DNA from: a virus
Reading direction: 5' to 3' (one strand)
Virus genome (UHGV): UHGV-0095853
Length of the DNA: 35,246 nt
The notes beneath the pieces were generated by a model that saw only the letters and a program-made list of their open reading frames with translations, ran no database searches and was not told the origin of the DNA. Shown in pieces: positions 1 to 34,954 of the stretch. A program made the translations under genes and the position numbers. Every line of letters starts with the position of its first letter. Within the stretch, counting starts at the first letter, position 1.

Positions 1-90
1 CGGCGGAAAAACCGGTATTTAACCGCACCGTTGGGCTGCGTGATACCTGGGCGAAGTTAGGTTAATAGGTATTTCGCCACATGAAAAAGT

Positions 91-116
91 AAACGCCGCT
101 ACTGCGGCGTTTTTTA
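91..116. terminator. Bidirectional intrinsic terminator at the 3' end of dam
   Basis: GC-rich hairpin (acgccgc / gcggcgt, loop tact) flanked by an A-run on one side and TTTTT on the other; overlaps the dam stop codon. Confidence 0.5.
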
Positions 117-1019
117 CTTCATTATTGCAATTATATCGTTAGCAACTACACGTGTTGACGCCTTGCAGGAAACCGACCGTCTGGCTGCCATATGATGTAC
201 TTTAAACCCGTTTCCTTCATATAGTTCACGGATGTTTGGAGCACCACTATTTGTTATCACTACCTTAGCGCCGCGCTGGTGGGCATCCACCAACAGTGAT
301 ACAAGCCGTTTTTGTTCATCGAAACGGAAGCTATTTCCTGAATAGCTGGTAAATCCCTCTGTATCCGGAAGCGGTTCATACGGCGGATCACAAAAAATCA
401 CATCGTCTTCACCAGCCGCCTCGATGACGCTAGCAAAGTCTCCTGATACAAAGGAAGTGTTTTTGAGTACGTCATCAGCCAAAAATGCCTCCATCTCTGC
501 ATGTGGGAAGTAGGGCGCTTTGTATTTGCCATACCCCACGTTGAACTCGCCATTTTGGTTGTACCGCGTTACGCCATTAAAACAGTGACGATTAAGGTAC
601 AAAAATGCGGCAGCATGATGTAGCTGGTCATATTTTCCTCTGTTAAATGCCTCACGCACTTCGAGGTAAGCGTCAGCGTTGTTGTAATTTTTGAAAAAAC
701 TATATGACAGCGTGACGAGCGAATGTCCTTCTCGCTGCAATGTCTGATAGAAGTTAATCAGGTCACCGTTAATATCATTAAGCAGGTTGTGGCGAAATCC
801 TGCATTCGTAAATACGGAACCGCCACCAACGAATGGTTCTATTAACCGCTTACCGTGTGGTAGATGCTCAAGCACTGTAGGCAATTCTGAGAATTTACCA
901 CCTACCCATTTGAATATCGGACGCTCATATTCATCCGGAGTCCGAATGGTGCGCATATAGCTAATTTCAGCCATCGTATCCTGTTTTTCTATGGCTATGC
1001 TTGCTATAGATTTACTCAT
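114..1019 (-). CDS. dam: DNA adenine methyltransferase, Dam family (N6-A, probable GATC specificity)
   Basis: Motif I FVGGGSV and motif IV DPPY; collinear with E. coli Dam along its length; start taken at ATG 1019 (MSKS...), overlapping the upstream stop. Confidence 0.85.
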   Translation of the reverse strand: MSKSIASIAIEKQDTMAEISYMRTIRTPDEYERPIFKWVGGKFSELPTVLEHLPHGKRLIEPFVGGGSVFTNAGFRHNLLNDINGDLINFYQTLQREGHSLVTLSYSFFKNYNNADAYLEVREAFNRGKYDQLHHAAAFLYLNRHCFNGVTRYNQNGEFNVGYGKYKAPYFPHAEMEAFLADDVLKNTSFVSGDFASVIEAAGEDDVIFCDPPYEPLPDTEGFTSYSGNSFRFDEQKRLVSLLVDAHQRGAKVVITNSGAPNIRELYEGNGFKVHHMAARRSVSCKASTRVVANDIIAIMK

Positions 1020-1692
1020 AGAGCACCCCCTTATTCGCTTCGAAAACTGCCTTTGCGAATCCATGTGGAGTAGCACTTCGGAAATTAGCCCTGTCAGGCC
1101 CTGGTGGCGCGGCATGGATTCTGTTATCTGGCTTGCCTAATGATTCGTCCATTAGGGCATCAGGCATGACAAAGCCCTGGCCGCTCCAGAGGCATGTTTT
1201 TTTGGTGTAGTTATCTTCCTGACAATATGCAGTGAAGAAGTAAGGGTGAAAGATGTGATCTGGCTTACGCCAGAATGTCGATATTTTGCTGACCGGATTT
1301 TCAATCATGTACGGACAACCGATCATCTTTGCAATGTCATAACACTGCCAGACAACCTGCATTGCTTTGAACTGGAAAACCGGATCTTTATTAGCCTTGT
1401 CCGAAAACCAGCGCGCGCCGGAAACAGCCAGGTCAGTACACGGTGGGAACCCGGCCAGAAACACGATGCGCTGCAAATTCTTACGGAGAAAAGCGTATAC
1501 TTCATCGCTATCGATGATCGCACTAATACGCGTCAGAACGGCACCTGATTGCATCCGCTCGTCACTGGTCGATAAGTGCTGTGGATCGACGATAGCGGCA
1601 TCGACACCGTATTCCAGCCAGGGGGCAACCATTGCCCCCGTAAAATCACAAAGACTCACAACAAGCGGTCGGTTATTATCGTTCTGCTTCAC
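1012..1692 (-). CDS. Short DNA (cytosine-5)-methyltransferase-like protein (226 aa), tentative
   Basis: GFPPC (motif IV-like PC dipeptide) and ENPV (motif VI-like); GTG start at 1692 with GGAGG 10 nt upstream; translationally coupled to dam; no obvious target-recognition domain. Confidence 0.5.
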
Positions 1693-2581
1693 CGCCAATG
1701 GCCTCCACCAGCGCGTTAAACAGTGCAGATAATTCGCCCGTAAAGAGCACGAAATCAGCATCAAATCGTTGTGCTACATCCTCCCGGTCGATATCGTCGT
1801 TCTGGTCATAGAGATCATCACAGAATGTCAGGGCTTTGATACTCATATCATCGTTGACTCTGAACGACGCACGGTCCATCCAGTTAATTGCAACGGTCGT
1901 AGCTACTTTCCCCGCCTCAATGTGAGACATAATCTCGTCGGACTGTAGATCAACTTTGTTGCAGCGAACGGCACCACCATTATCGAGCAGACCCTTTAAT
2001 GTGGCGTCTTCACCTGCTGTAAATCCGGCAGGGAAGCCGCTTTTAAACCACTCGGTCATTGTAATTTCCAGCGGTTCGCGTGGTGTGAATGGAATGACAG
2101 GCAGGCTGCCGAGCGACTTTCGCAATAAAGCCAGCTGGTCCTCTGCCTTTTTGGCGCTGCTTGCCTCAACGAATACCAGATGGTTGCTGCGGTCGATCAG
2201 GATTTTGGCGAGTGATTTTCTCGTGAACGCGCGAGGCAAAAGTGAATGCAGGACTTCATCTTTAAGACTGTCTCTTTCCGTTTTCTTCAGCTTGCGGGCT
2301 TGCTCTTCTTCGAGTTTCAGGACTTTTTTCTGCAACTCTTCCTTGAGCACCTGCGAGGGGAGAATTTTTTCTTCTCGCTTATGCTGTATTAGCAGAAAAC
2401 CCTGGTATTCATGGGTGAGGTTGTCACCAAGAACAGGTGTCCAACCGACTTTAGCTGTGTCCTGAGAACCGCAAGGAGTAAACACGAATTTGCTAAGAGC
2501 ATCGGATACTTCTGCGGCACTCCAGTTAACTTCACGTGAAAGACGATAGATGAAGATGTTTTTGAAAGCGACTGATCTCAT
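1676..2581 (-). CDS. rdgC: Recombination-associated protein RdgC homologue (P1 HrdC-like)
   Basis: Full-length collinearity with E. coli RdgC ([58 protein letters not shown]). Confidence 0.85.
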
Positions 2582-2587
2582 GTTTCA

Positions 2588-2631
2588 CCAATTGTGTTAG
2601 AAAATTCTATTCAATTATCTAACACAATTGG
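2588..2631. promoter_or_regulatory. Perfect 14-bp inverted repeat (CCAATTGTGTTAGA / TCTAACACAATTGG, 16-bp spacer) ending 7 nt before the rdgC start codon
   Basis: Read directly; arms carry the recurrent TGTGTTAGA operator core; not followed by a U-run so not a terminator. Confidence 0.5.
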
Positions 2632-2640
2632 ATGTGTTTT

Positions 2641-3294
2641 CTATCCCTTCTTGAAATCAAAGTTGCTTGCGATAGCCTGGAAGGTGCCTCCAGCCTTGAA
2701 ATCAATATTTTCGTCGGCTGTCACAGTAATGTTTTTGCCATTAACGCTGATGTTATCGGCTGATTTGACGTTAACACTCCCTCCCGCATTCACTACTACA
2801 TCAGCCGGACCAATGATGTATATCTGCCCTGATTCATTCATTCCAATCCTTGAGCCTGCTGCCGTATTCGCTATTTCATATCCACCGCCAGCCGTTCGCA
2901 CTTCGAGCACATTGTTGCGGTGAATCACGAAATCTTTTGTCGCCGAAAATTGCGGGCGGGGAGGCGCTCCGTCTACTTCTGGTGGCGTCCAGCCGCTACC
3001 ATTGCCTGACGCCTCCGGCGCGACGTTTGGTACTCCGCCAGGCGCATCCTGAGCTGCGCCAACTATCATTGGGCGTCTGGTATCAATTCGACCATTAACA
3101 TCCAGATAAGGAAACTCTACCCATACCAGGTCGCCTTTTACTGTAGGTACAAACGCGTTACCTATGGGTAACAGGTATTCTGCCCAGGGTAGATCGTCAT
3201 CAGGAACGCCATTCCAGTCTGGTAAAACACGGACCTGAGCACGCATAAGCCCTGCCGGGTGCACAGTTCCAACAATTTGCGCTCTACGCTTCAT
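2641..3294 (-). CDS. Phage protein of unknown function; N-terminal OB-fold-like region and C-terminal Gly/Asn-rich beta-repeat resembling gpV/gp45-type baseplate spikes (tentative)
   Basis: VRVLPDWNG..LPWAE..VKGDLVWVEF pattern then VNAGGSVNVKSADNISVNGKNITV repeats; ATG overlaps upstream stop (ATGA). Confidence 0.55.
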   Translation of the reverse strand: MKRRAQIVGTVHPAGLMRAQVRVLPDWNGVPDDDLPWAEYLLPIGNAFVPTVKGDLVWVEFPYLDVNGRIDTRRPMIVGAAQDAPGGVPNVAPEASGNGSGWTPPEVDGAPPRPQFSATKDFVIHRNNVLEVRTAGGGYEIANTAAGSRIGMNESGQIYIIGPADVVVNAGGSVNVKSADNISVNGKNITVTADENIDFKAGGTFQAIASNFDFKKG

Positions 3295-4271
3295 TTGTTC
3301 GGCACTCCCAATATCATTCGTGTTGTGTAGCCTACGCGGTCTTCAAAGTGCGCAACATTTTTTACTATCAGCTTACGGGGCATTGATTCATCAATGCGGT
3401 TTTCCTGGTCATAGCGGTATACGATAATCTCTATCACCATCCCCGGTTTTATATCAGGATTGCCTGCGACTTCTATATCCATTTTGGGGACGAGAGACAG
3501 CTGCATATTGCGAAGAGTTTCCATATCAGAGTCGGATATATAACGCACTGGGAGTGAGCTATCGCCATATTCGACGTAGCCATCGGTCATGGAATACCCA
3601 ACAAAACGATATTGATTCTTTGCTGTTGTCGCATGTTCCTGTTGGAGTAGGCGCATTTTGGACAAAGTGTATTCTGCTTTAGGGTTATTCCCCTCGTAGG
3701 TAAATGATGGCGTTTGCTTCATCAGATCAGCCAGGGTGTAAAAGTTAAATTCCCCCCGGCATACCCAACATAATGCACCTTTGTCTCGCGCTATCTCCGA
3801 AAGCATTTTTGACGGTTTGTCACCGGCATTCAGATGATATGTAACTGCGCGTTTTAGCACGCTGCTGGTAATTTTAAGCTTGCCGGAATATGCCTTGAAT
3901 ATAGCGTCTGGTGTTTTGTTGGTATGTAAATTTGTGCGCGGGGAGGGGATCTTAAACCTGCGCACGTCTTCACTGACAGCAATAACGGTAACAACATCAC
4001 CAGCCAGCATTGCAGACGTAACAAAGAAATCTGTTTTAAAAGTGCCTGCATTACCGTTTGGATCGCCCATTTCAGCCACCAGCGATGCACCGTATTTGGC
4101 TTTCCAGTCATCAATTACGGTGCCGGTAGCGTCATGAATTTCCAGTTTTAGCAAAGGGGCTTTGAGGCTGGTTTTTTCTACATATACTGCGGTAAAAATC
4201 CAGTCTCGTGGCACTTTGTTATCGTTAATGAGCACTGACTGTAGAAAATATTGTTGTAACTCCTGGGCCAC
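3291..4271 (-). CDS. Hypothetical protein (326 aa)
   Basis: Long ORF, GTG start 4 nt after upstream stop, co-oriented in a 4-gene operon. Confidence 0.6.
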   Translation of the reverse strand: MAQELQQYFLQSVLINDNKVPRDWIFTAVYVEKTSLKAPLLKLEIHDATGTVIDDWKAKYGASLVAEMGDPNGNAGTFKTDFFVTSAMLAGDVVTVIAVSEDVRRFKIPSPRTNLHTNKTPDAIFKAYSGKLKITSSVLKRAVTYHLNAGDKPSKMLSEIARDKGALCWVCRGEFNFYTLADLMKQTPSFTYEGNNPKAEYTLSKMRLLQQEHATTAKNQYRFVGYSMTDGYVEYGDSSLPVRYISDSDMETLRNMQLSLVPKMDIEVAGNPDIKPGMVIEIIVYRYDQENRIDESMPRKLIVKNVAHFEDRVGYTTRMILGVPNK

Positions 4272-5975: not shown

Positions 5976-6278
5976 ATGAAAATAATTTCGGTAAAAACAC
6001 TAAGGGATTTCTGGGCGAAGAATCCCGATGCAGAACAGCCATTAAAGGCATGGGTTGATGAAGCAACAAAGGCTGACTGGAAAAATCCGGCTGAGATCAA
6101 AGAACAGTACCGGACAGCCAGCATCCTTAAAAACAGGCGCGTGGTGTTCAATATTAAGGGAAATGATTACAGGTTAATTGTCGCAATTGCTTATCAGCGA
6201 GGATGGATGTTCGTTAAGTTTATTGGAACACATAAGGAATACGATGCCATTGAAGCGGATACAATAGAACTGGAGTAA
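5976..6278 (+). CDS. higB: Type II toxin HigB-family (RelE-fold mRNA interferase)
   Basis: About 100 aa; FNIKGNDYRLI and FIGTHKEYD signatures; directly followed by an HTH antitoxin. Confidence 0.75.
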   Translation: MKIISVKTLRDFWAKNPDAEQPLKAWVDEATKADWKNPAEIKEQYRTASILKNRRVVFNIKGNDYRLIVAIAYQRGWMFVKFIGTHKEYDAIEADTIELE

Positions 6279-6281
6279 ATC

Positions 6282-6641
6282 ATGAACATTAAACCTATCC
6301 GTACAGAACAAGATTATGAGGCCGCACTGCGTGCGGTCGAACCGATGTTCGATAACGAACCGGAAATGAACACACCGGAAGGCGATTTCTTTGAAGTAAT
6401 GTGCCTGCTCATTGAAGAGTACGAGAAAAAGCATTACCCAATTGAGCCACCATCACCTATTGAAGCCATTAAATTCCGTATGGAACAGCAAGGGCTGACC
6501 GTGAAGGATCTGGAACCGGCGATTGGTAAGTCAAATCGTGTTTACGAAGTGCTAAATGGGACACGAAATTTAACGTTACCTATGATTCGTCGTTTACATT
6601 CCCAGTTTGGCATTCCTCTTGAAAGCCTGGTTGGTGTATGA
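6282..6641 (+). CDS. higA: HigA-family antitoxin (XRE-type HTH)
   Basis: C-terminal HTH (LTVKDLEPAIGKSNRVYEVLNGTRNLTLPMIRRL); 3-nt gap after higB. Confidence 0.75.
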   Translation: MNIKPIRTEQDYEAALRAVEPMFDNEPEMNTPEGDFFEVMCLLIEEYEKKHYPIEPPSPIEAIKFRMEQQGLTVKDLEPAIGKSNRVYEVLNGTRNLTLPMIRRLHSQFGIPLESLVGV

Positions 6642-6645
6642 GTTT

Positions 6646-6672
6646 GGCGGTCTGTATGACCGCCTTTGTTGT
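6646..6672 (+). terminator. Intrinsic terminator after higA
   Basis: Hairpin ggcggtc-tgtat-gaccgcc followed by TTTGTTGT. Confidence 0.6.
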
Positions 6673-6675
6673 CAA

Positions 6676-7872
6676 TCAAGAACCTTTCTTCACGTACTCC
6701 ATAAACATTTTTTCAGCTTGCTCAGGTGACGTTCCTGCCATGACCAGTGCATCAATGAACGCTTGCTTCTTCAGTGCGAATTGATCGGCAAGGCGTTGCT
6801 GAAGCTCCTTGTTTTTCTGTTTCTCACGTTGCAAGGCTGCTTCTTTTGCTGCTGCCCGTTTTTTCTGTGCATCGGACAACTTTCTGGCCCTGGTCAGCTG
6901 GTCACGTAGCTTGTCAATCTTCCCGTTGTCCTTTGCCAGTTTTGTGCTTAAAGCGGCCTGGCGTTTCTGATAGAGCCTCCATTCGCGCTTGGCGGCTTCA
7001 ACGTTCGTTTTACTGCTACGATTGCGATTAAACTCCTTCTCGTCTTCTTTTGAGAAGTGTTTAGTTGTACGGCGGCGATCGTCACCAAATGCAATTTGCG
7101 TTGCGGCCTTTTGTAACGCACGAGCAATACTCATTTGCCAACTGGCGGACTGTAACCGCGTCATTGAGTGGATCACGTGTTTACAGGCGACGCCTTGTAG
7201 CTTAGGGTTACGAACTTTTGGATAGGCGTATTCTTTTGGCGGGGCCAGGGCAAAGTTACCCGCAGTAGCGATGTAACGATACCAGTATTGATGACGACCA
7301 CAGTCACAATCGAAAGACACCCGCCCGGCGCACAGTGATTTAGTGATTTTCAGAGCTGATTTATCGTCTTCTGCGATGTCATCGACCATCTGATCCCATT
7401 CTTCAAAGCGTATCCGGACGATATGGTGCTGGTGGACGGATATATCCGATGCTTCTACGCGGATATTAATCACGTTGTGGCGAAGAGATACAGGTGTAGC
7501 TCTTTTGATACCAGATCCGTCATCCACGGCGTTATTTGCACGCTTAATATCGATTGCCTGGCTGGATGCCACCAGCTGGGCGTATGTGATGCCAGCCGTC
7601 TTGCTGTCATATTTTTCGCGTGTTTTACTCCGTAGCTTTTCGAAACCTTTCAGGTCGTCTCGCGTGAAGAACGTGCCGCCTTTTTTCTTCCCTAACTTGA
7701 GAATATCTTCGGCGGATTTGTTCCTCAGTCTACCTGGCGTCAGCGTCCGGTGAGCTTGTCGGCGCTTACGGGTTTGTTCTTTCCTGATAAGGTCGAATAA
7801 ACGCGTGAAGTCCTTAGAGGACAGGCCGTCAGTGATATAGCGCCCGTCCTGGTTTTTCAGGAAATCAGGCAT
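6676..7872 (-). CDS. SWIM-type zinc-finger protein with Lys/Glu-rich C-terminal coiled coil; function unknown
   Basis: CxC...CxH motif (FDCDCGRHQYWYRY...GVACKHV); C-terminal 130 aa heptad-like K/E/Q-rich; GGAG 8 nt before ATG; overlaps upstream gene by 8 nt. Confidence 0.55.
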   Translation of the reverse strand: MPDFLKNQDGRYITDGLSSKDFTRLFDLIRKEQTRKRRQAHRTLTPGRLRNKSAEDILKLGKKKGGTFFTRDDLKGFEKLRSKTREKYDSKTAGITYAQLVASSQAIDIKRANNAVDDGSGIKRATPVSLRHNVINIRVEASDISVHQHHIVRIRFEEWDQMVDDIAEDDKSALKITKSLCAGRVSFDCDCGRHQYWYRYIATAGNFALAPPKEYAYPKVRNPKLQGVACKHVIHSMTRLQSASWQMSIARALQKAATQIAFGDDRRRTTKHFSKEDEKEFNRNRSSKTNVEAAKREWRLYQKRQAALSTKLAKDNGKIDKLRDQLTRARKLSDAQKKRAAAKEAALQREKQKNKELQQRLADQFALKKQAFIDALVMAGTSPEQAEKMFMEYVKKGS

Positions 7873-24376: not shown

Positions 24377-25133
24377 CTGCCACTTCCTTAACTTCTTCTT
24401 TGGCCTGTTCTGCAATCGCCGCACGGCATTTCGCCCTGGCTGTAGCGATTGCTTCAGCTCGCACATCGTCTGGAATCGTTGACGTGATATACATATCCAG
24501 TTCTTCGGCACGGAATACTGTTTGGTCCAGATATTCGCGTAGCATCCAGGTAAATTCGAAATCACACGCGATAATCTCTGCGCTACCTTCTGCACCATTT
24601 GGGAAATGAATAAATGCCTGTTTAGCCAAACCGATAACACGACATGCGGTTGCCAAAACAGCGACAACCAGGTTTACATTTTCACACGCTACGGGCTGAT
24701 TAACGCCGGAGATTACTCCATTTAACTGTCGGTTATATGGAAGGTAGTTTGAGATGCGTTCTACGCGCCATGTGCCAGTCAGGCTGCCATTTTTAAAGAT
24801 AATTGGTGTAACGGATAGCCCAAGCTCGCGTATAAGTCGTTGCGCTATAGCAGGATCATTAAACAGGTCTAATGCTACACATTCGAAAGACTGCGCAAGG
24901 GCAAACAGTTCTTCCAGAGAGTAGTCTTTGCCCCTGGCGGTGATGTAACGACGAACGCCGCTGTCTGCATCACTCCATATAGCTACGCCATGCTCTTCAT
25001 TCAGCTCTTCATTAAAGCCGAGATACGTCATGATAGTGCGTTCAATCGTGTCAAACGGCAGTGACATGTCGGCGTTAACAGCCACCAGCAGGCCATTACG
25101 CAAGCGGTATTGAATTGTTTTAGTGCTTTCCAT
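24366..25133 (-). CDS. Hypothetical protein (255 aa)
   Basis: ATG with GGAG upstream; overlaps downstream gene by 11 nt. Confidence 0.55.
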   Translation of the reverse strand: MESTKTIQYRLRNGLLVAVNADMSLPFDTIERTIMTYLGFNEELNEEHGVAIWSDADSGVRRYITARGKDYSLEELFALAQSFECVALDLFNDPAIAQRLIRELGLSVTPIIFKNGSLTGTWRVERISNYLPYNRQLNGVISGVNQPVACENVNLVVAVLATACRVIGLAKQAFIHFPNGAEGSAEIIACDFEFTWMLREYLDQTVFRAEELDMYITSTIPDDVRAEAIATARAKCRAAIAEQAKEEVKEVADGD

Positions 25134-31184: not shown

Positions 31185-32548
31185 TAGTCATCCTCCGGCG
31201 GTTCTATCGCAATATCATCATCTCCGGCGTCATACCCTGCATCTGATGCATCATAATCACCGTAAATTTCAGCCGTTGCCGAAGGGTCAATGTCCAACTC
31301 TTCATCGTTGGCCTCGAATTCCCCAGCCTTACGCTCGCCATTGTGGTCGTAATCTCCGCACCCCAGATCTTCAACAATGGTTGCCACATCCGCCCGGCGC
31401 TCTGCCAGCCATTGCGGATGGTTAGCCTGAAGCGATGCAAACTCCTTCGCTTCTTTGTCCAGCTGTTCATCATCAACATCATTGATGTCAGAAACTGGAG
31501 GTTCGAGAAGAGTGATAGCTTTCGCCGCGCGCGCCGCGAGGATAGCCGGGACACTGACACCCTGACGCTCGATGTATTCAGCAACACCGATATCGTCCAG
31601 CTCCTCGCGCTCACGCATACGTATAGCGGCGGCGATAACTCTGGCTGCGCGTGCGTCAGCGCCAATGCGATATTCAATCTCTTTGCCACGCTGTTCGGCC
31701 TGTAGGCGTGCTAATTCGAGTTTTTCTCTGGCCTCGGCCTCTCTGAATGCTTGCTGGCGAGCACCCTGACGAAGTTTTTCATCACCCTGTCGCAGCTTTT
31801 GTTCGGACTGATATATCGCTGCCAACCTACTGATAAAATCGTTCATGTAGTAGGCCGCGTCACTGATTAGACCGAGAAGTCGCTGCCCAGGGTGCATTCC
31901 TTCTGGCTGTTCATCACCCAGGGCGTCTATCTCCGCCTGTAGGCGTTCGGCCTCCTGATCAACAATGCTTTGGTACTGAAGTGCGCGTTCTTGCGCCATT
32001 TGAATTGCTAACCGCAGGTGCTCTTCTGCGCCGTTCTTCATCATGTCGCGAGCCACACTCGTAGTGGGCAACGTGGCACGCTGCACAGCACCGCCAGGGA
32101 TCATTGCTGAAGATCCCTCGATTTTTGAGGCGCATTTATCTTCGGTGGGGATCATTTTCGCCATTTTTTCGCGCAATGATCTCCTGACAGATTCTTTTAT
32201 CTCATTGTTATTATTGTCGTTATTTTTATGATCCGAAGTTTTCTTTCTCGGCATGCTCCGGAAAGAACTTCCGCTCTGTGAATTGTCAGTTTCTGTAAAT
32301 TTTGTTGTTTCTGTACCCTCTTCTGGCCTTTTTTTTGCTCTTCCTGCCCGTTTTTTTTCAGGTGATTTGGTGCTTTTTTTTGTAGTCTTCACCTGCGACC
32401 GCACCTCATTTTTTTTCATATTGAGATGCTTTCTGGCGGTATTGAAGCTAAGGTCGTGTTGCTCGCAGTATTCCTTTACGGTGATCCCTTTTTCTTCACG
32501 CAACGCTATAAATTTGGCGCGGTGCTCTTCCCAATTAACAAGGCTCAT
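31184..32548 (-). CDS. pacA: Terminase small subunit (PacA-like)
   Basis: N-terminal HTH-like segment (ITVKEYCEQHDLSFNTARKHL); position upstream of pacB; contains GATC-hexamer cluster; long acidic C-terminus. Confidence 0.7.
   Translation of the reverse strand: MSLVNWEEHRAKFIALREEKGITVKEYCEQHDLSFNTARKHLNMKKNEVRSQVKTTKKSTKSPEKKRAGRAKKRPEEGTETTKFTETDNSQSGSSFRSMPRKKTSDHKNNDNNNNEIKESVRRSLREKMAKMIPTEDKCASKIEGSSAMIPGGAVQRATLPTTSVARDMMKNGAEEHLRLAIQMAQERALQYQSIVDQEAERLQAEIDALGDEQPEGMHPGQRLLGLISDAAYYMNDFISRLAAIYQSEQKLRQGDEKLRQGARQQAFREAEAREKLELARLQAEQRGKEIEYRIGADARAARVIAAAIRMREREELDDIGVAEYIERQGVSVPAILAARAAKAITLLEPPVSDINDVDDEQLDKEAKEFASLQANHPQWLAERRADVATIVEDLGCGDYDHNGERKAGEFEANDEELDIDPSATAEIYGDYDASDAGYDAGDDDIAIEPPEDD
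32099..32233. other. Candidate pac (packaging initiation) site: five GATC-containing hexamers within 135 bp inside pacA
   Basis: GATC at 32099, 32112, 32150, 32178, 32230 with AT-rich tracts between; about 0.5 expected by chance. Confidence 0.4.
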
Positions 32549-32937
32549 AAAGCAACACCACGCTTTTTAACTGCGGCATTCCACAGCTTATTAGTCATGT
32601 CCACCAGCTTGCGCTGCTCTTGTCGCGCCAGTTCTGCAGACTTCCGGCTACAGTTTTTAACCAGCAAACTGCCGTATTCAGGGGTGCGCCCGCGCACCTT
32701 GAACTGATATCCGTTCAGGCCATGCAACCAGTATTTCCGTGGGTAAACACGATCATCAAGCTCACAAATAGCTCGGCTTGACCGCACAAAATGCCGAATG
32801 ATGTTGGTTACACTTACGCGTGAAACATGAAGGTGAGGATATTTTTCTTTAGCTAGAGTGGTAATTTCGGTGACTGTCAGATAGCAGTCAGCCCTAATCA
32901 TGATATCCGCAATTTCTGCGCTGCTGATATGCTCCAT
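32545..32937 (-). CDS. lpa: Lpa-like late promoter activator (positional call)
   Basis: 130-aa protein immediately upstream of pacA with ATGA overlap, as lpa is in P1; operator pair upstream; GGGGGA before ATG. Confidence 0.4.
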   Translation of the reverse strand: MEHISSAEIADIMIRADCYLTVTEITTLAKEKYPHLHVSRVSVTNIIRHFVRSSRAICELDDRVYPRKYWLHGLNGYQFKVRGRTPEYGSLLVKNCSRKSAELARQEQRKLVDMTNKLWNAAVKKRGVAL

Positions 32938-33010
32938 TAATCCCCCGGGCAGGAAATGACCGAGGGGATGATAATGAGAATGTTATTTCTGTATAGACTG
33001 GCAAAAAGTT

Positions 33011-33055
33011 TGTTATATTAGAAAATTAATTCCATTCATCTAACACTACCAGCGA
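33011..33055. promoter_or_regulatory. Inverted operator pair (TTAGA-N16-TCTAAC) upstream of the lpa-like gene
   Basis: ATTAGAAAATTAA at 33015-33028 and TCTAACAC at 33039-33046. Confidence 0.4.
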
Positions 33056-33438
33056 GATAAGCGAACGACGTGTTTTACCTTAGCGATCCACTTACCACGT
33101 GAGTTATTAATTACGGCCTGCGCCACCTTTAAGCTGACTTCAAAATCAGCCTTACGACCATCAGAATCCACCAGCGTTGCACCGTCTATTTCCGGCAGGC
33201 TTAAATAATCCTGTTCTACCTCTAATGGCATTGACGGCTCTCTGAATGGTGTCAATTGCCGAGCTTTCCAGATAAAGCGAACTCTCAATCCCCTATAAGC
33301 CATTACCATGTAGCCTGTTATCGTGCTCTTATGGCCTGCATCAGTACGCGCAGCATTACACGATACAATCTTACAGGTGACGATATTCCACTCCACATTG
33401 GAGACTTCGTGAATGCTTAATTTTGTTGTCTCGTACAT
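33046..33438 (-). CDS. Hypothetical protein (130 aa)
   Basis: ATG overlapping upstream stop. Confidence 0.5.
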   Translation of the reverse strand: MYETTKLSIHEVSNVEWNIVTCKIVSCNAARTDAGHKSTITGYMVMAYRGLRVRFIWKARQLTPFREPSMPLEVEQDYLSLPEIDGATLVDSDGRKADFEVSLKVAQAVINNSRGKWIAKVKHVVRLSRW

Positions 33439-34013: not shown

Positions 34014-34466
34014 AACGTCTCCTTTTTACACGCGCGACCATCCCTCGGTTAAACCGATAGAGATGTCGAAACTTCGTATTAATTAAGGGTTACAGCCTGA
34101 GCGGCTATATGATGAATTGAAAGGAGTTGTGGCGGTGGTGCCTCCACCTGCCAGGTTAGCCACTCCTGGCGACGTCACTTATCAGAACGTAGTGAATGAA
34201 AATGGCTTCGTCACGAGCGCATAGCCGCAATTACCACAACGGAAACGGCGCTCACGCTAATTAAACGCCTTTTCCTGTTGTGCGCCGTACTCTTCCGGCT
34301 GTCACACCGAATCGCCAGGATGGTGAGTCCTCGGTCCGACGATATGAACGGGGCTTGCACATTCCGGCTACCTGGTTTGTTGCCTGAGCTAGGGGAAAAG
34401 GTAACCCCTTTAACGTCACCAGACCGCTAACGACGCATGTGCCTTACGCCGTGTTACAACCAAATA

Positions 34467-34542
34467 TGGTGGCCCCTACCGGACTTGAACCGGTGACCGT
34501 GCGATTATGAGTCGCCAGCTCTAACCACTGAGCTAAAGGGCC
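34467..34542 (-). tRNA. tRNA with CAU anticodon, closest to tRNA-Ile2 (ileX/ileY type, lysidine-modified)
   Basis: GGCCCTTTAGCTCAGTGGTTAGAGCTGGCGACTCATAATCGCACGGTCACCGGTTCAAGTCCGGTAGGGGCCACCA; about 10 differences from E. coli ileX as recalled. Confidence 0.8.
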
Positions 34543-34551
34543 AGATTACTG

Positions 34552-34680
34552 TTAATTCCGCTTACGCTTTTTGCCAGAACCGCGTAAGGCTTTTGCCGCT
34601 TGCTCGACCCCATATGCAACCACCAGCAGAAATAAAAATGTCCAACCAGGGTTCTTATCGGCAAAGGCCCAAAAATCCAT
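34552..34680 (-). CDS. Possible small membrane protein (42 aa)
   Basis: MDFWAFADKNPGWTFLFLLVVAYGVEQAAKALRGSGKKRKRN; one hydrophobic helix then basic tail; weak RBS. Confidence 0.3.
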   Translation of the reverse strand: MDFWAFADKNPGWTFLFLLVVAYGVEQAAKALRGSGKKRKRN

Positions 34681-34954
34681 CACTTGCAGCTACCTTTTAA
34701 GACAAAACGCCATTGCTGTTAGATTGCGGTGCCGGGTGCCTCCCGGTGACGTTAACCAGTTAACAATTAACGCCGGGATGTTTGACTTAACTATTGAGGA
34801 AAATTGTTTTAACTGTTCCGCGTGCGCTTAGCCGCATTCACCGCAATGGTAAGAGCACTTGGCTGGCTGGGCGGCGATGACGCCTGTACGCATTTGGTGA
34901 TCCGGTTCTGCTTCCGGCATTCGCTTAATTAGCCAAATACTCTTAACGTTGCGC

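Follow-up and report, generated by a model that had tools for sequence, protein, structure and literature searches.

A related locus is that of phage P1, which carries uhr-hrdC-dmt and in which Dmt, one polypeptide of 754 aa, is composed of an N-terminal PF00145 module with a full-size variable region and a C-terminal PF02086 module. P1 Dmt methylates GATC, and cleavage at pac needs GATC methylation (P1 record; PMC12707154). In phage D6, the GenBank record (MF356679) lists D6_63 as a site-specific DNA-adenine methylase ("similar to C-term half of P1 dmt only"), D6_64 as a putative DNA-cytosine methylase and D6_65 as an RdgC-family protein. A further point of comparison is the Dcm of phage K42, a stand-alone, orphan enzyme encoded by a 711-bp gene, with C82, E128, K175 and K176, which has been reported as the trigger of retron Ec86; with the quadruple mutant, LC-MS showed less 5mC in msDNA than with the wild type, and CCWGG was taken over as its target from E. 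coli Dcm, not mapped (bioRxiv 10.1101/2023.08.16.553469).

The DNA analysed here, called the window hereafter, is a stretch of 35,246 nucleotides of the virus genome UHGV-0095853. Its positions 1-3300 are 100% identical to the E. coli plasmid pLD93-1-90kb (90.7 kb) and 94.4% identical to phage D6. They contain, on the minus strand, a three-gene unit in which rdgC (301 aa; 1676-2581), the homologue of P1 hrdC, comes first and is followed by an ORF of 226 aa (1012-1692), the homologue of D6_64, referred to below as the small methylase, and by a gene encoding a Dam-type N6-adenine DNA methyltransferase of 301 aa (114-1019), the homologue of D6_63. The GTG start codon of the small methylase (1692-1690) lies within rdgC, 17 nt from its 3' end, with a GGAGG Shine-Dalgarno sequence (1706-1702) located 9 nt upstream, and its own 3' end overlaps dam by the 8-nt stop/start sequence ATGAGTAA (1019-1012). 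As the three genes overlap, they are probably translated from a single message. Between dam and the convergent glnS, a terminator scan detects a bidirectional, terminator-like hairpin (91-112), seen on both strands, whose 9-bp stem contains 6 G-C pairs. The sequence-only reading of this DNA had described a 226-aa ORF with GFPPC and ENPV motifs, a Dam and an rdgC gene, and all of them are found where it placed them, the motifs at residues 81-85 and 131-134, respectively. The 17-nt and 8-nt overlaps agree with its proposal of two translationally coupled methyltransferase genes behind rdgC, and the position of the pair matches that of P1 hrdC-dmt.

We therefore regard this region, with good confidence, as the unit formed by rdgC, the small C5-methylase gene and dam on a D6-type, P1-related E. 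coli phage-plasmid, encoding two orphan DNA methyltransferases without a restriction partner. The methylase pair is real but ordinary, already known and annotated. The three D6 genes display the same order, lengths and overlaps, and differ from those of the window by 1 nt in 681 for the small methylase, 21 nt for dam and 63 nt for rdgC. The flanks of the plasmid lineage of the window are 4-15% diverged from D6, whereas a 1.5-kb tract containing the small gene is nearly identical.

The small-ORF cassette is present in 89 of 5,426 complete E. coli genomes and is plasmid-borne in every case, the share of complete E. coli genomes with the D6-like phage-plasmid group being about 1.6%. Variants at 88 and 79% DNA identity retain the 226-aa ORF and the 8-nt stop/start overlap, either as ATGAGTAA or as GTGGCTGA, and the order rdgC, small methylase, dam is also kept by a relative with 64% identity in the small methylase. 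With pN/pS values of 0.12 and 0.15 in the variants at 88 and 79% identity, respectively, the small methylase gene is, by this measure, under purifying selection. These data also bear on the question of whether one fused gene has been split by a sequencing or assembly frameshift, a flaw that the sequence-only reading had itself considered. Such an error could be suspected from the PGAP flag on Dam ("incomplete, missing N-terminus"), from a fused small methylase-Dam protein on one short contig and from split PF00145-Dam genes on metagenomic D6-like contigs. However, D6 and 89 complete E. coli plasmids share one and the same two-ORF layout, both diverged variants preserve the stop, the restart and the 8-nt overlap, and the PGAP flag is raised because Dam is compared with longer, fused Dmt proteins. 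The probability of an artefact is therefore negligible, and the two separate ORFs are genuine.

The second gene of the pair had been read as a canonical Dam, and the HMM searches bear this out. Its product matches PF02086 in the Pfam scan (5.5e-57, 193.8 bits for a cut-off of 22) and TIGR00571 in the NCBIfam scan (251.1 bits for a cut-off of 114.85), and is 69% identical to residues 478-753 of P1 Dmt, that is, to its C-terminal half. It aligns end-to-end with E. coli Dam (2g1p, a solved structure; E=1e-58), and matches DpnM at 9e-45. Like these D12-class GATC adenine methyltransferases, it has the DPPY catalytic motif (as CDPPYEP), FxGxG-type motifs and equivalents of Asn120/Arg124; it differs from them in scoring under the NCBI equivalog cut-off for host Dam (241 vs 441 bits) and in possessing a 30-residue N-terminal leader, a relic of a fusion linker. 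Given its identity to P1 Dmt and the way it aligns with E. coli Dam and DpnM, this protein most likely methylates the adenine in GATC, like the orthologous half of P1 Dmt.

The small methylase belongs to a large family of phage proteins of about 220 aa. It matches the phrog_757 profile over residues 2-224 of 226 (E=4.3e-78), as do the tuinn and KarlBarth homologues (4e-85 and 1e-82, respectively). PHROG 757 comprises 1,591 phage records, and more than 7,900 homologues of the small methylase, of about 215-230 aa, form what we call the "mini-Dcm" family. Nevertheless, the 226-aa ORF matches zero Pfam families at E<=1 and zero NCBIfam models, and a precomputed Pfam domain is absent from all 120 of its listed homologues. 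When the PHROG 757-type family profile is compared with all PDB sequences, no methyltransferase is retrieved, and only chance matches to ornithine decarboxylase appear. The AlphaFold model of the protein (pLDDT 86.9, pTM 0.86) displays the strand and helix order of a class-I methyltransferase, with FPPC following strand 76-81 and ENP lying in strand 128-132. The best Foldseek matches in the PDB are MET1, DNMT3B and DNMT1 (E-values of 8e-4 to 8e-3), together with a chain of a pre-60S ribosomal particle, which ranks at the top; over the four, E ranges from 4e-4 to 8e-3 and TM from 0.38 to 0.47, so that these structural matches, all with TM <0.5, are moderate. Matches in BFVD are to family members and to canonical viral C5 methylases. 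A methyltransferase fold, on which the sequence-only reading depended, is thus recovered by structure prediction and not by the Pfam and NCBIfam profile searches.

The motifs are consistent with this fold. Over 126 family sequences (124 cluster representatives, two phage homologues and the window protein), Cys85 is conserved in 125, Glu131 in all 126 and Lys164 in 122. Judged by its motifs, the catalytic set is of the DNA type, with Cys85 as the Pro-Cys nucleophile, Glu131 in a Glu-Asn-Pro motif VI, and Lys-Lys in motif VIII. In motif I, the canonical FxGxG is replaced by SLCDFTG, which falls within the family pattern S-L-[F/C/Y]-D-x-[T/S]-G, and the Cys at the atypical position is found in 40 of the 126 sequences; binding of SAM by the subfamily of the window protein is assumed. 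The slot for a recognition domain is limited to about 38 residues (172-209), located between strand 166-171 and helix 210-224 and predicted by AlphaFold to have hardly any secondary structure, while some relatives have an insert of 28-32 residues in the same slot. Taken with the match of the fold to C5 methyltransferases, this agrees with the earlier description of the first gene as C5-methyltransferase-like without a real target-recognition domain.

When compared to the canonical C5-cytosine DNA methyltransferases of PF00145 (E. coli Dcm, M.HhaI, DNMT1/3), which are its best structural neighbours, the window protein has the same predicted fold and the same order of motifs I, II, III, IV (PC), VI (EN-) and VIII and of the C-terminal motif X helix. 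It differs in lacking a significant sequence-profile match, in the length of the region from motif VIII to the C-terminal motif (about 38 residues, vs roughly 80-150), and in its ENP, not ENV, its K-K, not R-x-R, and its atypical motif I. The comparison with K42 Dcm is closer. The residue numbers of the K42 enzyme land exactly on FPPC, ENP and KK of a 236-aa Warwickvirus (tuinn) homologue, a PHROG 757 member that is 37% identical to the window protein over its full length, and Cys85, Glu131, Lys164 and Lys165 of the latter align with C82, E128, K175 and K176 of K42 Dcm. The two proteins thus share family, catalytic Cys/Glu/Lys-Lys, similar size and the lack of a large recognition domain, and both are stand-alone and orphan. 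The K42 type nevertheless differs in its canonical FDGSG motif I (SLFDGSG), compared with CDFTG in the window protein, and in an insert of 14 residues ahead of motif VIII; the loop after motif VIII is a different one in the window protein. Moreover, the K42 (KarlJaspers-like Warwickvirus) gene is that of a lytic siphovirus and is uncoupled to rdgC or dam, and activity has been measured for K42 alone. Overall, we consider it likely, as part of the best explanation of the whole locus, that the 226-aa protein, as modelled, is a C5-cytosine methyltransferase of minimal size within PHROG 757; by analogy with its K42 homologue, it most likely makes 5-methylcytosine.

It could be argued that the small protein is not a DNA 5mC methyltransferase at all: it might be a partner of Dam, whether inactive or regulatory, or an enzyme that uses RNA or some other substrate, or it might transfer a group different from methyl. 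Its atypical motif I (CDFTG), its Lys-Lys in place of Arg-x-Arg in motif VIII, its lack of both a recognisable target-recognition domain and a Pfam match, and the pre-60S particle chain at the top of the Foldseek PDB matches are all in favour of this idea. C5-methyltransferase-like phage enzymes of other chemistry do exist, e.g., a reported cytosine carboxymethyltransferase (PMC12783734). In addition, a 563-aa protein (P0121) fuses a PHROG 757-type module to Dam, which could mean a single working unit. P0121 is however the sole protein matching both halves among the 390 that were fetched, the remaining long Dam homologues being PF00145 fusions or fragments, and it is weak evidence because its gene comes from only one contig, of 2 kb, on which the neighbour is not RdgC; members of the family are mostly stand-alone, without attached Dam. 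Purifying selection on the gene and the almost complete conservation of the nucleophile Cys, the motif VI Glu and the motif VIII Lys speak for catalysis by the 226-aa protein, whose ENP in motif VI is that of DNA methyltransferases. The annotation of the window includes no TET-like or CmoA-like partner and no glycosyltransferase. Finally, a family member, the K42 enzyme, raises DNA 5mC, and its four-residue mutant does not (bioRxiv 10.1101/2023.08.16.553469). A function other than DNA 5mC methylation is therefore improbable. A related, and comparably doubtful, proposal keeps the small protein as a 5mC methylase but makes it depend on, or cooperate with, the coupled Dam, with an unusually short, relaxed or Dam-guided target such as a cytosine in or next to GATC. 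It comes from the adjacency and overlap of the two genes, from their fusion in one metagenomic protein and from the PF00145-Dam fusions that mirror it. If it were true, the combined m6A and m5C mark would block more kinds of nuclease than m6A or m5C by itself, and D6-type phage-plasmids would trigger retron Ec86-type defences through the small enzyme.

How the small methylase is related to P1 Dmt can be addressed by comparing the window with D6-like plasmids, some of which have the fused, P1-type form at this locus. The sequence-only reading held that the functions of Dmt are here carried by two genes, which can be read as a simple fission of Dmt, in which the 226-aa ORF is a degenerate or shortened C5 half cut from the Dam half by a stop codon. 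The likenesses to P1 are real: the pair comes directly after, and overlaps, an RdgC homologue (by 17 nt here and in AR_0119, by 4 nt between hrdC and dmt in P1), cytosine-type and adenine-type modules are combined without a restriction enzyme, the Dam half is orthologous, and the PC and EN(V/P) motifs are common to the ORF and Dmt. Moreover, the N-terminal ~22 residues of the window Dam still look like the linker between the domains of the fused proteins of L009, a D6-like locus, and AR_0119 (A..A..KQ..T...I.Y.R), so that the window dam did once follow a fused partner. However, the locus has two polypeptides where P1 has one, and the C5-like module is unrelated by sequence to that of Dmt. BLASTP gives only E=2.9 between the 226-aa ORF and the PF00145 half of Dmt, that is, no detectable similarity, and two family alignments compared by hhalign with the N-terminal half of P1 or AR_0119 Dmt are likewise insignificant (E 0.26-0.5). 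PF00145 matches P1 Dmt at 1.6e-35 and misses the ORF even at E<=1, and the ORF belongs, over its full length, to a distinct and widespread family of stand-alone proteins. As a side observation, the local hhalign alignment to the Dmt half places PC and EN(V/P) in register.

The DNA comparison leads in the same direction. An intact, fused PF00145-Dam gene is present at exactly the same site in other D6-like plasmids. When the window is aligned by blastn with L009, positions 3400-1676 align (83%), positions 944-1 align (96.7%) and nothing aligns between; the counterpart of the 945-1675 interval in L009 is a 1.3-kb PF00145 segment. Homology to the fused locus thus breaks abruptly at both ends, stopping at the rdgC stop codon and restarting at dam codon 26, and the exchangeable cassette (945-1675, minus strand) corresponds to the small methylase minus its first 17 nt, plus the first 25 dam codons. 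The PF00145-type genes of L009 and AR_0119 begin with the same Shine-Dalgarno sequence, GTG and first four codons (VKQN) as the small methylase. Since the fused gene occupies the same site elsewhere and homology breaks at the rdgC stop codon and at dam codon 26, the locus is, on these sequence comparisons, an allelic cassette replacement and not a simple fission. This site has two alternative alleles, namely the small gene followed by a re-started dam, or the fused PF00145-Dam gene known from P1; the small gene has taken the place of the C5 module without being homologous to it, and is no piece of Dmt. A fission of a P1-type Dmt, already contradicted by the sequence comparisons and by the cassette ends, is very unlikely, and of the functions said to be split only the Dam half is orthologous, the other ORF belonging to PHROG 757. 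The locus illustrates neatly how two cytosine-methylase modules, unrelated by sequence, are exchanged before the same Dam, both using one ribosome-binding site and start codon located inside rdgC.

Concerning the role of the pair, the sequence-only reading had noted the lack of a restriction endonuclease partner and proposed an anti-restriction or packaging function. By annotation names, none is found adjoining the pair or among the 111 features of pLD93-1-90kb. Phage P1 carries a Type III system and many ORFs of the plasmid are labelled "hypothetical", so that it is not absurd to view the pair as the methylating part of a restriction-modification system, its endonuclease being elsewhere or unrecognised. 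Against this, the neighbours of the pair are rdgC, tail and baseplate genes and the convergent glnS, no restriction enzyme is annotated across the whole 90.7-kb plasmid, the PHROG 757 members of lytic phages adjoin helicase and polymerase genes, and P1 Dmt, the orthologue, is a known orphan. This makes such a system extremely unlikely. By analogy, an anti-restriction or packaging role is plausible for the two orphan methylases: methylation would be kept on replicating and packaged phage DNA, which could thereby be protected from restriction in the next host, and a GATC-methylation-dependent pac cleavage could be permitted as in P1. As E. coli hosts usually have a Dam and a Dcm of their own, the benefit of the phage copies is one that we infer. 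A P1-like pac site was considered as a hint of Dam function and rejected: the densest GATC cluster of the window, inside pacA, is modest, with 5 sites within 135 bp, and its hexamers resemble TGATC[CT], in contrast to the TGATCA/G of P1. Site counts show an excess of CCWGG and no significant depletion of GATC, so that nothing about the targets of the methylases can be deduced from them.

The main value of these results lies in the annotation of the methylases of D6-like phage-plasmids. PGAP labels the small methylase "hypothetical protein" and starts it at the ATG at 1632, which would drop strand beta-1 and motif I, and it marks the intact Dam as a pseudogene, at least in the D6-like plasmids examined; methylase content is therefore under-counted in D6-like phage-plasmids. 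PHROG 757 is furthermore very large and has neither a Pfam nor an NCBIfam model. As one of its members is a retron trigger, knowing which elements carry it helps to predict the host range of phages and plasmids.

The first gene of the unit is annotated as rdgC in pLD93-1 and as D6_65 in D6. Its product matches PF04381 over residues 6-298 (E=5.1e-103; Pfam scan), i.e., over its full length, and NF001462 with 381 bits for a cut-off of 330. Just upstream of rdgC lies a 44-nt palindrome (2588-2631, minus strand), with 19-nt arms that are 95% complementary and a predicted RNA fold of -23.6 kcal/mol (z = -6.4). A repeated operator was rejected, as the arm recurs in the window no more than by chance. 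The outer 5 bp of the arms vary between the window, D6 and a further locus (L010) with complementarity kept, and a weak, sigma-70-like promoter match (2643-2614; 9 of 12 positions) overlaps the palindrome, which could possibly be a regulatory site of the unit.

Behind rdgC (1676-2581, minus strand, 301 aa), the window contains two further minus-strand ORFs, encoding a small C5-methyltransferase-like protein of 226 aa (1012-1692) and a Dam of 301 aa (114-1019). The small gene starts with a GTG (1692-1690, minus) located 17 nt within the 3' end of rdgC and preceded at 9 nt by a GGAGG (1706-1702, minus), and the octamer ATGAGTAA (1019-1012, minus) holds both its stop codon and the dam ATG. GFPPC occupies residues 81-85 and ENPV residues 131-134 of the small protein; coordinates and motifs thus bear out the two overlapping methyltransferase ORFs announced by the sequence-only reading. 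The unit, which a terminator-like hairpin (91-112) separates from the convergent, plus-strand end of glnS (1-65), would supply a Dam and a minimal cytosine-C5 methylase, co-translated with RdgC through overlapping reading frames. Directly upstream of rdgC, a 44-nt palindrome (2588-2631, minus; 19-nt arms, 6-nt loop) overlaps a weak sigma-70-like promoter, ends 6 nt short of the rdgC ATG and covers part of its GGTGA ribosome-binding site. Its RNA fold reaches -23.6 kcal/mol (z = -6.4), and its outer 5 bp (CCAAT/ATTGG in the window, CCATT/AATGG in phage D6, AAAAC/GTTTT in a third D6-like contig) are perfectly complementary in all; it may act in termination, in processing or in the control of translation.

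The nature of the small protein was assessed by profile search and structure prediction, two approaches that the sequence-only reading named. Scanned against Pfam and NCBIfam, it has no match even at E<=1, and a search of PDB sequences with a profile built from 59 homologues turns up no methyltransferase. It is, over its whole length, a member of PHROG 757 ('DNA methyltransferase'; 4e-78), a family of more than 7,900 database proteins (1,592 clusters at 50% identity), nearly all of 210-250 aa and devoid of a Pfam domain, which hits 1,591 phage records, T1-like, Webervirus, Dhillonvirus and rV5-like phages among them. The alignment-based AlphaFold model is confident (pLDDT 86.9, pTM 0.86), and its strands and helices follow one another as in a class-I methyltransferase; the loop following the Pro-Cys motif is the only disordered internal segment. 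Its best solved-structure neighbours are the C5 methyltransferases MET1, DNMT3B and DNMT1, and a pre-60S ribosomal particle chain likewise ranks high; scores are moderate (E 4e-4 to 8e-3, TM 0.38-0.47); in a viral structure library, strong matches are family members and weak ones canonical viral C5 methylases. Across 126 sequences (124 cluster representatives, two phage homologues and the window protein), Glu131 and Pro133 are invariant (126/126 each), and Cys85 (125), Lys164 (122) and Asp36 (120) nearly so. As only residues 172-209 separate the motif VIII strand from the C-terminal helix, the remark that an obvious target-recognition domain is missing is correct; this 38-residue segment stands in for it, and some relatives carry a 28-32-residue insert at this position. 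The gene is under purifying selection: two diverged plasmid variants (88% and 79% DNA identity) both keep 226 codons, with pN/pS of 0.12 and 0.15. The same fold is also found as a domain of very large phage proteins (BFVD A0A6J5NPY6, 1126 aa; A0A6J5SE15, 1397 aa), one of which has an annotated helicase/UvrB domain at its N-terminus, and fused to an HNH endonuclease domain (protein P0195, 348 aa).

Activity has been published for this family. A 711-bp phage gene from the KarlJaspers-like phage K42, encoding a 'Dcm', was identified as the trigger of retron Ec86; its C82, E128, K175 and K176 were predicted to be catalytic or substrate-binding by comparing an AlphaFold model with DNMT3A, 5mC in msDNA was reported to be higher with the wild-type enzyme than when all four residues were mutated, and the target, CCWGG, was presumed by reference to E. 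coli Dcm instead of being mapped (preprint 10.1101/2023.08.16.553469). By direct count, these four residues fall exactly on FPPC, ENP and KK in the 236-aa homologue of Warwickvirus tuinn, a PHROG 757 member 37% identical to the window protein. The numbering match and this membership therefore indicate that the family includes one member with measured cytosine-C5 methylation, by analogy with which the small enzyme would make 5mC. Motif I is the canonical FDGSG in the K42 type but CDFTG in the window protein, a variant whose Cys is common in the family (40/126). Over the whole window CCWGG is over-represented, not avoided (95 vs 52 +/- 6.6 in dinucleotide shuffles), and GATC does not differ significantly (114 vs 135 +/- 12).

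The second enzyme is, as proposed, a canonical Dam: it matches PF02086 (5.5e-57) and TIGR00571 (251 bits vs a cut-off of 114.85), falls short of the equivalog threshold set for the host enzyme, contains DPPY, and aligns end to end with the solved E. coli Dam (E=1e-58) and likewise with DpnM. With residues 478-753 of P1 Dmt it shares 69% identity; Dmt is described as GATC-methylating in a phage whose pac cleavage requires GATC methylation (PMC12707154), and this orthology suggests specificity for GATC. The unit is surrounded by rdgC, baseplate and tail genes and glnS, and no restriction enzyme is named among the 111 products annotated on the corresponding plasmid, in line with the reported absence of an endonuclease partner. 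The pair could maintain methylation on DNA that is being replicated or has been packaged, which would protect it in the next host and, as in P1, permit pac cleavage. The densest GATC cluster of the window (32099-32233, 5 sites in 135 bp) lies inside pacA (31988-33352, minus), and 4 of its 5 sites read TGATC[C/T] on one or other strand. This candidate is reminiscent of the methylation-dependent pac site located inside P1 pacA.

In P1 the order is uhr-hrdC-dmt, under a C1-controlled promoter, and the 754-aa Dmt combines PF00145 and PF02086. It had been proposed that Dmt is here split into two genes. This stands for the Dam, which matches its half of Dmt, but not for the small ORF, which belongs to a different family: neither BLASTP (E=2.9) nor hhalign (E 0.26-0.5) relates it to the PF00145 half, and it is ruled out as a Dmt fragment. 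The arrangement is thus a C5 module replaced by another family rather than a fission of Dmt. A further D6-like element, E. coli AR_0119 plasmid unitig_3, has the tail genes, rdgC and glnS of the window, with one intact 718-aa PF00145-Dam gene after rdgC and the same 17-nt overlap; in two metagenomic D6-like contigs this module is called as two ORFs. At the DNA level, the window aligns with one of these two contigs over 3400-1676 (83%) and 944-1 (96.7%), with nothing between. Both types of gene share their start inside rdgC (GGAGG, GTG, codons VKQN), and a resemblance to the linker between the two domains of the fused protein persists in the ~22 N-terminal residues of the window Dam. The locus thus exists as two alleles, one a fused PF00145-Dam gene, the other a small PHROG 757 gene followed by a re-started dam.

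A survey of complete E. coli genomes (5,426) finds the small-gene cassette in 89, always on plasmids, and sequence resembling the PF00145 segment in 493, 40 of which have at least 80% of it; 5,338 matched the first query because the phage-plasmid glnS resembles the chromosomal one. Relative to D6 (record L001, GenBank MF356679, 4693-6185), 5 positions differ over the roughly 1.5 kb of 693-2185, a tract that spans the small gene together with the adjoining 3' part of rdgC and 5' third of dam. Divergence of the flanks was put at 4-15%, and by segment at 4-8% (200-700) and 10-20% (2200-3200), which marks the tract as recently recombined. A distant relative (small protein 64% identical) keeps the gene order with a 19-nt overlap, and a 563-aa fusion of a family member to Dam occurs on a single 2-kb contig, which is weak evidence.

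Over its first 3.3 kb the window shows 100% identity with E. coli plasmid pLD93-1-90kb and with several further plasmids of 87-129 kb, and 94.4% with D6, a P1-related phage-plasmid; pLD93-1 42695-77940 is equal in span to the window and matches its gene positions, the sequences not being identical throughout. The D6 record names D6_63 a site-specific DNA-adenine methylase 'similar to C-term half of P1 dmt only', D6_64 a putative DNA-cytosine methylase and D6_65 an RdgC-family protein 'similar to P1 gene hrdC'. The sequence-only description, real and mostly right, therefore repeats published annotation, and the unit has been annotated before, in a phage-plasmid group that is itself known. For all the E. 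coli plasmids looked at (NZ_CP047663.1 and others), NCBI automatic annotation nevertheless calls the small methylase a 'hypothetical protein' starting at an internal ATG (1012-1632), which strips strand beta-1 and motif I, and the intact Dam a pseudogene 'missing N-terminus' (114-953), apparently because the closest references are fused Dmt proteins. The phage-plasmid glnS, already annotated in D6, is a full-length glutaminyl-tRNA synthetase gene extending beyond the window in pLD93-1 and D6. Further products encoded in the window, as annotated by PGAP at matching pLD93-1-90kb coordinates, are a Thoeris anti-defence Tad2-family protein (34242-34817), RelE/HigA (5993-6704) and Phd/Doc (24452-25053) pairs, a dUTPase, a Ref-family nuclease and a DNA polymerase III theta homologue.
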